UHGV virus genome: UHGV-0176211
Source: a virus
DNA length: 39,415 nucleotides
Reading direction: 5' to 3' (one strand)
The first letter of the stretch is position 1. Each line of letters begins with the position of its first letter. Both the position numbers and the translations under genes were made by a program. This document shows positions 29,434 to 29,688 of this stretch, in pieces. The notes under the pieces were generated by a model that had not been told where the DNA came from, made no database searches, and saw only the letters and a program-made list of their open reading frames with translations.

Positions 29434-29688
29434 ATGAGTATGATTCTGATTGAGAAAGCAATGAGAACTAAGGTTGGGAACCCGCGAAGAAAACTGATTC
29501 TGCTTAAACTTGCCGATAACGCCAATGACAATGGCGAATGCTGGTTTTCATATCAGCATATCGCTGACCAGTGCGAGATTAGCAGATCGACAGTAATTGG
29601 TCACATTTTAGCACTGGAAAAGACTGGGGTTTTGAATTTGGAGCCAGGAAGTAACCAGCCGAAGTTTGCTCGCCTGATGCTTAAATAA
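29434..29688 (+). CDS. Stand-alone paralog of the O-like initiator N-terminal domain
   Basis: 84 aa; first ~60 aa nearly identical to the N-terminus of the downstream 256-aa O-like protein, then diverges. Confidence 0.55.
   Translation: MSMILIEKAMRTKVGNPRRKLILLKLADNANDNGECWFSYQHIADQCEISRSTVIGHILALEKTGVLNLEPGSNQPKFARLMLK

Follow-up and report, generated by a model that had tools for sequence, protein, structure and literature searches.

A probable recombination scar of an earlier initiator gene upstream of the O-like gene in a P22-like phage lineage

Just upstream of the gene for its O-like replication initiator, a P22-like lambdoid phage carries an intact ORF of 84 codons that encodes a DNA-binding domain of the initiator type and stops at the end of that domain. 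This ORF, called O' here, is most plausibly the recombination scar of an earlier initiator gene, a scar that is probably still translated, and on balance it probably has no function that the phage requires. The window, which is the whole stretch of DNA that was analysed, is a metagenome contig of 39,415 bp (ENA ERZ1034773 NODE_91). Among deposited sequences, it is closest to Lederbergvirus phages and to the early regions of Stx phages, with at most about a third of the window covered by any record.

The short ORF and the resident initiator

O' occupies 29434..29688 on the + strand, from an ATG start to a TAA stop (29686-88), and encodes a stand-alone winged-helix (HTH_36) domain of 84 aa. Its leader (29411..29433, +), homologous in alignments to the leaders of Min27-type O genes, holds a near-optimal Shine-Dalgarno sequence, AGGAG at 29421-29425, 8 nt 5' of the ATG. 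The resident O-like initiator (29723..30493, +) is a protein of 256 aa with an A-type winged helix-turn-helix domain, iterons inside the gene and a C-terminal domain. The similarity between the two products is far above chance: in a BLASTP alignment free of gaps, 51/67 residues are identical and 57/67 similar (E=9e-35). The earlier note had called the first ~60 residues of the two almost identical, which is right as to a paralogous N-terminus and somewhat overstated as to degree, since identity in that alignment amounts to 43/50 (86%) over residues 1-50 and then to 8/17 over residues 51-67. In the DNA, the relationship takes the form of a 200-nt direct repeat at 83% identity (29408-29607 and 29697-29896), in which the longest identical runs are 47 nt (29498-29544 = 29787-29833), in agreement with the ~45-nt identical stretch reported earlier, and 38 nt (29547-29584 = 29836-29873).

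In phage λ, the N-terminal part of O binds iterons inside its own gene and the C-terminal part recruits the helicase machinery. The λ protein belongs to a different sequence family from O' and the resident O and, to our knowledge, λ encodes no separate copy of O reduced to the DNA-binding domain. The Pfam family HTH_36 (PF13730, gathering cut-off 25 bits) matches O' with 44.1 bits over residues 17-65 and the resident O with 52.6 bits, and a PHROG search with O' returns replication-initiation families, the best being phrog_4617 (residues 1-71, E=4e-29). A Phage_rep_O match is listed for neither protein, the matches being to HTH_36 and DnaD_N-like families only. That O' lacks the iteron-containing and C-terminal parts of the initiator, as had been claimed, is borne out: a scan of the window for iteron cores finds none in 29434-29722, the iterons of the resident gene lie at 29988-30073, and O' ends at residue 84, whereas the resident O has 170 more residues that match phrog_33384 and phrog_270. 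The C-terminal part that follows the iterons in O is presumed to recruit the helicase/primase, and its presumed partner is a Toprim primase/helicase of 968 aa with a LAGLIDADG intein, encoded at 30601..33507 (+). The intein-like insert (Hint plus LAGLIDADG homing endonuclease) spans approximately residues 370-720 and splits the Toprim domain from the AAA_25 helicase; homologues free of the insert have ~626 aa (for example in Salmonella phage SI8, 1881 nt), and phiKp_30 has the same 968-aa gene.

The truncation leaves a domain that looks whole. An AlphaFold2 model of O' built on a 92-sequence alignment has a mean pLDDT of 89.6 and a pTM of 0.81, with a less certain wing loop; it places helices at residues 3-11, 17-29, 40-47 and 51-64 and strands at 35-37, 67-69 and 78-81 (topology H-H-E-H-H-E-E). 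O' is thus predicted to be a complete winged helix with a last strand that runs up to the stop codon, and the stop coincides with the domain boundary. This confidence is driven by the alignment and is no gauge of whether the substitutions in O' are tolerated. A Foldseek search with the model finds winged helix-turn-helix domains as its top matches, the N-domains of the plasmid initiators 4pql and 5kbj among them, and a sequence search of the PDB with O' finds no solved relative.

A mosaic of two allele classes

The N-domains of these O proteins form two subtypes, the A-type of the resident O and a B-type carried by Min27, Stx2a_F403-like phages, APC_JM3.2, phiKp_30 and Salmonella phage SI8. 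The recognition helix reads ISKRSVINHIEALCEAG in the A-type (resident O), VSRSTVKSHIRALEEMG in the B-type and ISRSTVIGHILALEKTG in O', which therefore follows the pattern 'SRSTV..HI.ALE' of Min27, SI8, APC_JM3.2 and phiKp_30 rather than the resident 'SKRSV..HIEALCE'; it differs from the B-type at 6/18 positions, including the loss of one Lys and one Arg. The iterons also come in two types, GGTGCAGGAGATTCACC and GGTGCAGGAGCTGCACC for the A-type and GGGCAGGAGCTGCCC for the B-type (Min27/Eru5-type), with different flanking bases.

The B-type (Min27/Eru5-like) part of O' covers 29585..29716 (+) and takes in the recognition helix, the wing, the TAA stop and a post-stop remnant of ~30 nt. In a global nucleotide alignment O' is colinear with Min27 O from ~25 nt 5' of the ATG to the start of the Min27 iterons; within this span the wing of O' has lost a net 12 nt (4 codons) in frame, and the TAA stop aligns to AAT in Min27 O. 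At the protein level, MAFFT aligns the O' tail, NLEPGSNQPKFARLMLK, to the wing of the homologues with a gap of ~5 residues. The piece 29637-29716 aligns to Min27 O with a score of 8, which is 4 SD above shuffled sequences (-25.7 +/- 8.2) and is reached by 0/2000 of them, and alignment to the corresponding part of the resident O finds no similarity. The tail homology appeared only in directed global alignment to B-type O genes; a BLAST search with the unique O' tail (29637-29722) returns no match in phages or E. coli genomes.

The front of the ORF has a different character. At the 66 sites that separate the resident O from Min27 O, O' agrees with the A-type at 18 and with the B-type at 9 to the left of ~29584, and with the A-type at 4 and the B-type at 22 to the right (Fisher p=2e-4 at the best breakpoint, uncorrected for breakpoint choice). 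Over the first 67 codons its nucleotide identity to B-type O genes is 81-82%, and 76% to SI8. Together, the colinear B-type homology and the mosaic sites indicate that O' is the 5' end of a B-type O gene, the front two-thirds of which have been homogenised to the adjoining A-type O by gene conversion.

One later instance of such conversion is directly visible in the window, as a clustered patch of changes identical to the resident O. At 29556..29577 (+), 6 nt differ within 22 nt, altering 4 residues (HIADQCE vs DLAYQCD): the common O' allele, SYQDLAYQCDIS (P0001), is found in 11 related contigs, and the version SYQHIADQCEIS in the window and one other contig. The window version of the patch is identical to the resident O, itself 100% identical across all related contigs, and it is only because of this patch that the window allele has the 38-nt identical run. 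IMG/VR, the JGI metagenomes and the GTDB representative genomes yielded neither a full-length O that has the residues specific to O' nor a donor for the 'DLAYQCD' patch.

The earlier note had offered, as its second reading, that O' is a remnant of the same duplication, and another part of the O gene is indeed duplicated in the window. The resident origin has four iterons (29988..30073, +) with GTGCAGGAG[A/C]T[T/G]CAC cores at a spacing of 22-24 nt; a second origin copy, ori' (28434..28692, +), consists of five iterons and the O middle segment and occupies the position of cI in related prophages. The copied O middle (28473-28692, 220 nt) matches 30006-30225 at 98% identity, a figure that rises to 100% in one relative. 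It could be supposed that O' is a recent tandem duplicate of the 5' end of the resident O, made in the same event as this copy and diverged afterwards: the 200-nt repeat with its 47- and 38-nt identical runs and the nearby duplication of another O segment would agree with that. This is nonetheless very unlikely. The copy of the iterons and O middle shows 98-100% identity to its source, against ~81-83% between O' and the resident O, so the two do not come from one duplication, the former being, on sequence divergence, either much younger or better homogenised; moreover, the 3' third and the wing of O', like the sequence after its stop, are of the Min27/Eru5 type, and gene conversion accounts for the identical runs. 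The remnant part of the earlier proposal is therefore the better-supported of the two readings it put forward, and the shared duplication is the part that falls away.

The preferred reading, that of a scar, draws its support from the B-type colinearity that continues past the O' stop up to the first iteron, from the absence of O' from the other phages examined that carry either parental allele, and from its place next to a replaced cI, a cut cII and a region with no integrase-sized ORF. The homologies, the mosaic, the conversion patch and the restricted distribution are direct results, and from them we infer the identity of the ancestor and the order of events. The ancestor would have had the order cII, a small ORF and a B-type (Min27/Eru5-like) O, as in Escherichia phage APC_JM3.2. 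A module exchange would then have introduced the A-type O with its own iterons, with the left junction inside the old O just 5' of its iterons, so that the old leader, Shine-Dalgarno sequence and winged-helix domain were left directly upstream of the new O. Later, a deletion may have taken away the 3' end of cII along with the small ORF, 12 nt may have been lost from the wing in frame, and the TAA would have arisen 10 codons before the old iteron position, while conversion by the adjoining resident O presumably overwrote the 5' two-thirds, with one further patch in the window allele.

What is left of cII fits the proposed order. The truncated gene (29281..29406, +) retains 41/97 codons, as judged from the Pfam Phage_CII match (positions 1-37 of 91), BLAST and the junction sequences; homology to HK97-type cII stops at about 29403-29408 (codon 41-42), and beyond that point the gene is deleted, as is the small ORF before O. 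What remains shares 97% identity with cII of APC_JM3.2, in which a B-type O lies downstream of cII. The fragment ends by a TAG where intact cII has TCG, and this TAG and the next nine codons lie in the O' frame; amber read-through at this codon would yield a cII'-O' fusion of ~135 aa, which is probably a coincidence.

The replaced cI and the early operons

O' lies in the pR operon, the first gene of which encodes a Cro-like HTH_3 protein of 71 aa (28925..29140, +). On the other side are N (27798-28142, -) and a pL-like promoter (28261-28289). A 23-nt inverted repeat, 28165-28187 and 29178-29200, is 87% complementary and corresponds to nutL- and nutR-like boxB hairpins (GGCTGAAAAGCC and TCGCTGAAAAGCGA). 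These hairpins place O' and O in an N-antiterminated operon, O' being downstream of the nutR-like boxB, and this position, with the retained Shine-Dalgarno sequence, makes translation of O' probable. A promoter-like site overlapping the O' start (29416-29444, 9/12) is weak and was set aside as not meaningful, 5 such sites being found where 2.9 are expected. An Rfam search finds no RNA family (for example oop-like) in 28100-30600, and the sole match above the gathering score in 26500-31500 is the cIII thermoregulator RNA (26602-26660, RF01804, 88.5 bits), which is retained along with cIII and kil.

Compared with the immunity region of E. coli prophage L003, the window is colinear from N to pL at 95.5% identity and from oR through cro to the 5' part of cII at 88%, and between these segments the cI ORF is replaced by 28363-28856. 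The replacement is exact, and the O middle copied within it carries an AT-rich stretch and the palindrome TGTTCGGACATGTTCGAACA; the insert also has a piece that resembles the spacer following O in phiKp_30. No S24-type repressor was detected anywhere in the window. The nine iteron cores of the window are restricted to 28434-28540 and 29988-30073, which gives the phage origin-like arrays at two places separated by 1.5 kb, and the upstream array lies between pL and pR. Within the upstream array (28430-28540) the number and spacing of iterons vary among relatives that are 99% identical (L007, L009, L010 and L011) through gain or loss of a 22-nt unit, and several assemblies end inside this array or at the 220-nt repeat. 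Insertion of a λdv-like circular element as one block was considered as an origin for this arrangement and rejected, given that N-pL and pR-cro-cII' are colinear with one prophage immunity region and cI alone is replaced.

Between the tailspike gene and N (21366-27800) there is no integrase-sized ORF, the longest having 235 codons and encoding a Rad52-like protein, so an integrase is apparently absent. Together with the loss of cI and cII, this points to a phage of temperate P22-like descent that has become obligately lytic. A comparable state may exist in phiKp_30 (LC768498.2, L004), a 33.7-kb Lederbergvirus of Klebsiella, which lacks cII as well as a cI between N and cro; both ends of the record lie within O, and the phage could be a second derivative without a repressor, or the assembly could be incomplete. 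Elsewhere in the window, an HNH endonuclease gene (18153-18656, -; PHROG 99, E=1e-62) directly upstream of an 898-aa ORF (18670-21366, presumed tailspike) is possibly a mobile homing element.

Distribution, constraint and possible activity

The O'-O tandem is present in every member of one lineage, and O' is intact in 13/13 contigs that carry it. The members are 99.4-99.9% identical where aligned (~0.1-0.6% of sites differ), and genes of the neighbouring left operon have been swapped among them while the O' module persisted. As the source is a metagenome and the region contains repeats, the tandem might be suspected of being a chimeric contig that joins the O alleles of two phages. This is hardly credible: independent assemblies of samples from at least four accession series, with three contig naming styles (NODE_, k119_, scaffold_), gave the same tandem, it is seen in contigs of 40.8-40.9 kb, short contigs run unbroken through cro-cII'-O'-O, and an O'/O repeat at 83% identity is too diverged for collapse or mis-joining. 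Several contigs of 1.1-1.6 kb break at the 220-nt repeat, as they would at a true repeat.

Conservation in relatives, which the earlier note had proposed to check, extends to the 99%-identical relatives and to none of the more distant ones that were examined. Among 80 IMG/VR loci whose O genes are related, not one carries an additional O copy within 3 kb. The phage, prophage and E. coli records fetched for comparison contain no O'-O tandem, the reference phages and prophages among them having a single O each, and no record among deposited phages and E. coli genomes covers at least 80% of the O'-O region. phiKp_30, which has no cI and shares the primase-intein gene, was a candidate carrier of the tandem and was rejected, since it has a single O once the ends of the record are joined. 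O'-specific peptides and O' tail DNA were found neither in GTDB representative genomes nor in IMG/VR and, in the JGI metagenomes, nowhere beyond the contigs of the lineage itself. A search of 5.8 billion proteins returned a sole full-length match to O', its own cluster, at 95% identity, and the O' tail occurs in 0/14 other short protein matches whose sequences were read. Several of the other short HTH_36 proteins that were read enter an alternative reading frame of the iterons, and the three such genes whose contexts were examined are disrupted single O genes in prophages, with no complete O alongside. The idea that short HTH_36 genes are a recurrent stand-alone regulator was rejected on these grounds, namely the alternative iteron frame, the missing O' tail and the disrupted O genes.

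The constraint on O' appears relaxed when its substitutions are compared with those of full-length initiators. Its dN/dS against B-type alleles is 0.37-0.42, as against 0.06-0.15 for full-length O N-domains among themselves, and the counts of nonsynonymous to synonymous changes are 22:14 for O' and 6:18 for the full-length N-domains (Fisher p=0.008). At the 46 positions that are at least 90% conserved in the family, the common O' allele departs from the consensus at 8 and the window allele at 4, the median homologue at 0. The changes at conserved positions include L18R and P38F, joined in the common allele by H42D, I43L, D45Y and E48D; in the window allele, conversion has restored consensus residues in helix 2. 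Possible signs of decay are a stop that is premature relative to the parental gene, the 12-nt deletion in the wing and the excess of replacements, and yet O' remains in frame, with a good Shine-Dalgarno sequence and a predicted fold. Against the reading of O' as a scar stand the intact ORF with its near-optimal Shine-Dalgarno sequence, the in-frame loss in the wing, the stop at the end of the domain, the confident fold, a dN/dS that is still below 1 and the persistence of the module amid the swapping of left-operon genes.

The first reading of the earlier note was that O' is a functional paralogue limited to the DNA-binding domain. It would act on the phage's own nine iterons, in the two origin copies, and fail to recruit the primase-helicase, so that it would dampen initiation or set its timing, or else repress transcription across the origin copy that lies between pL and pR. 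Such a role is rather unlikely, though it has a real chance of being correct. It would explain an intact ORF with a good Shine-Dalgarno sequence in the early rightward operon, a complete winged helix predicted with a pLDDT of 89.6, an HTH_36 match above threshold, a stop at the domain boundary, the presence of O' in every member of the lineage and the restored helix 2 consensus in the window allele. There is also precedent for sensitivity to binding-site competition: in λ, titration of O at iterons inhibits replication, excess iterons or an altered O:iteron ratio inhibiting initiation, as seen in experiments with additional origin copies (PMC3349717, PMC4488673), and iteron titration and 'handcuffing' have been discussed for this phage (PMC3349717). 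On the other hand, the recognition helix and wing of O' are those of the other allele class and the wing is 4 residues shorter, which makes binding to the resident iterons uncertain; the excess replacements and altered invariant positions (L18R and P38F, with more in the common allele) also speak against a maintained regulator, as does the lack of an independent tandem pair in any other phage examined. The retention of O' within the lineage carries no weight as to selection because the members are 99.4-99.9% identical, and it is doubtful what benefit a virulent phage would gain from curbing its own replication.

Conceivable in principle, and decidedly improbable, is an action directed at other phages, in which O' would bind the B-type iterons (GGGCAGGAGCTGCCC) of Min27/Eru5-type phages or prophages rather than its own, block their replication during co-infection or in lysogens and spare its carrier. 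The recognition helix and wing have stayed B-like while the rest became A-like, A- and B-type iterons differ in their flanks, and O genes of the B-type occur commonly in Stx phages and in prophages of E. coli. This argument is purely inferential, the helix is off the B-type at 6/18 positions and the wing is shortened, and the boundary between the A- and B-like parts is equally explained by conversion tracts that end where homology drops; no comparable system is documented in the literature searched. A wider version, in which O' is a domesticated decoy of the displaced initiator that either tunes the two origins or, with its old Min27/Eru5-type specificity, blocks competitors, is likewise improbable. 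We take O' to be a neutral or nearly neutral scar, and nothing in the sequences indicates that the phage needs it. If it is active, its likeliest effect would be a weak competition for iterons without recruitment of the helicase-primase.

The Eru5 replication unit, an HTH_36 protein with a primase, has been described for Stx2a_F403 (PMC8951638), which is among the best DNA matches to the window. With the Eru5-type O of Stx2a_F403, Min27, phi24B, APC_JM3.2, phiKp_30 and SI8, O' shares the leader, the start, the winged helix and the 'SRSTV' helix. Those genes have 210-222 codons, are present in one copy per genome and contain both iterons and a C-terminal part, whereas O' stops before the iterons, has a wing 4 residues shorter and changes at conserved positions, and stands in tandem with a complete O of the other subtype. 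Bacterial genomes often contain truncated or frameshifted O genes of defective prophages, which encode short HTH_36 proteins of 73-147 aa with this N-terminal domain; they differ from O' in that no complete O follows in the three contexts examined and that the O' tail is in none of those read.

Remnants of a displaced allele left beside an incoming module are a feature of the mosaic joints of lambdoid phages. O' conforms to this, being a fragment of a displaced allele next to an incoming module and beside the novel joints at cI and cII, in keeping with the mosaic organisation of P22-like phages (PMC8022706, PMC2629481). It departs from the usual joint remnant in that an entire domain is left, which apparently can fold, has translation signals of its own and undergoes conversion with its neighbour, and for these reasons an activity of O' is conceivable. 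Both displaced-allele fragments and truncated O genes are well known from lambdoid phages, and O' is a new and rather tidy example rather than a new kind.

If O' is a scar, it illustrates the exchange of a replication module with the junction inside a gene, and it shows how conversion continues between the fragment left behind and its new neighbour, in a P22-like lineage that circulates in nature and lacks cI, most of cII and apparently int. What is arguably more unusual about the locus is that a second origin copy stands in place of cI in a circulating lineage without a repressor. For annotation, the case is a caution that short 'helix-turn-helix domain-containing proteins' beside initiators can be fragments. 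If O' is active, it would be a natural phage paralogue of an initiator that consists of the DNA-binding domain only, and it would provide a handle on iteron competition or on interference between phages; were the action against competitors true, it would represent inter-phage interference built out of a recombination leftover.
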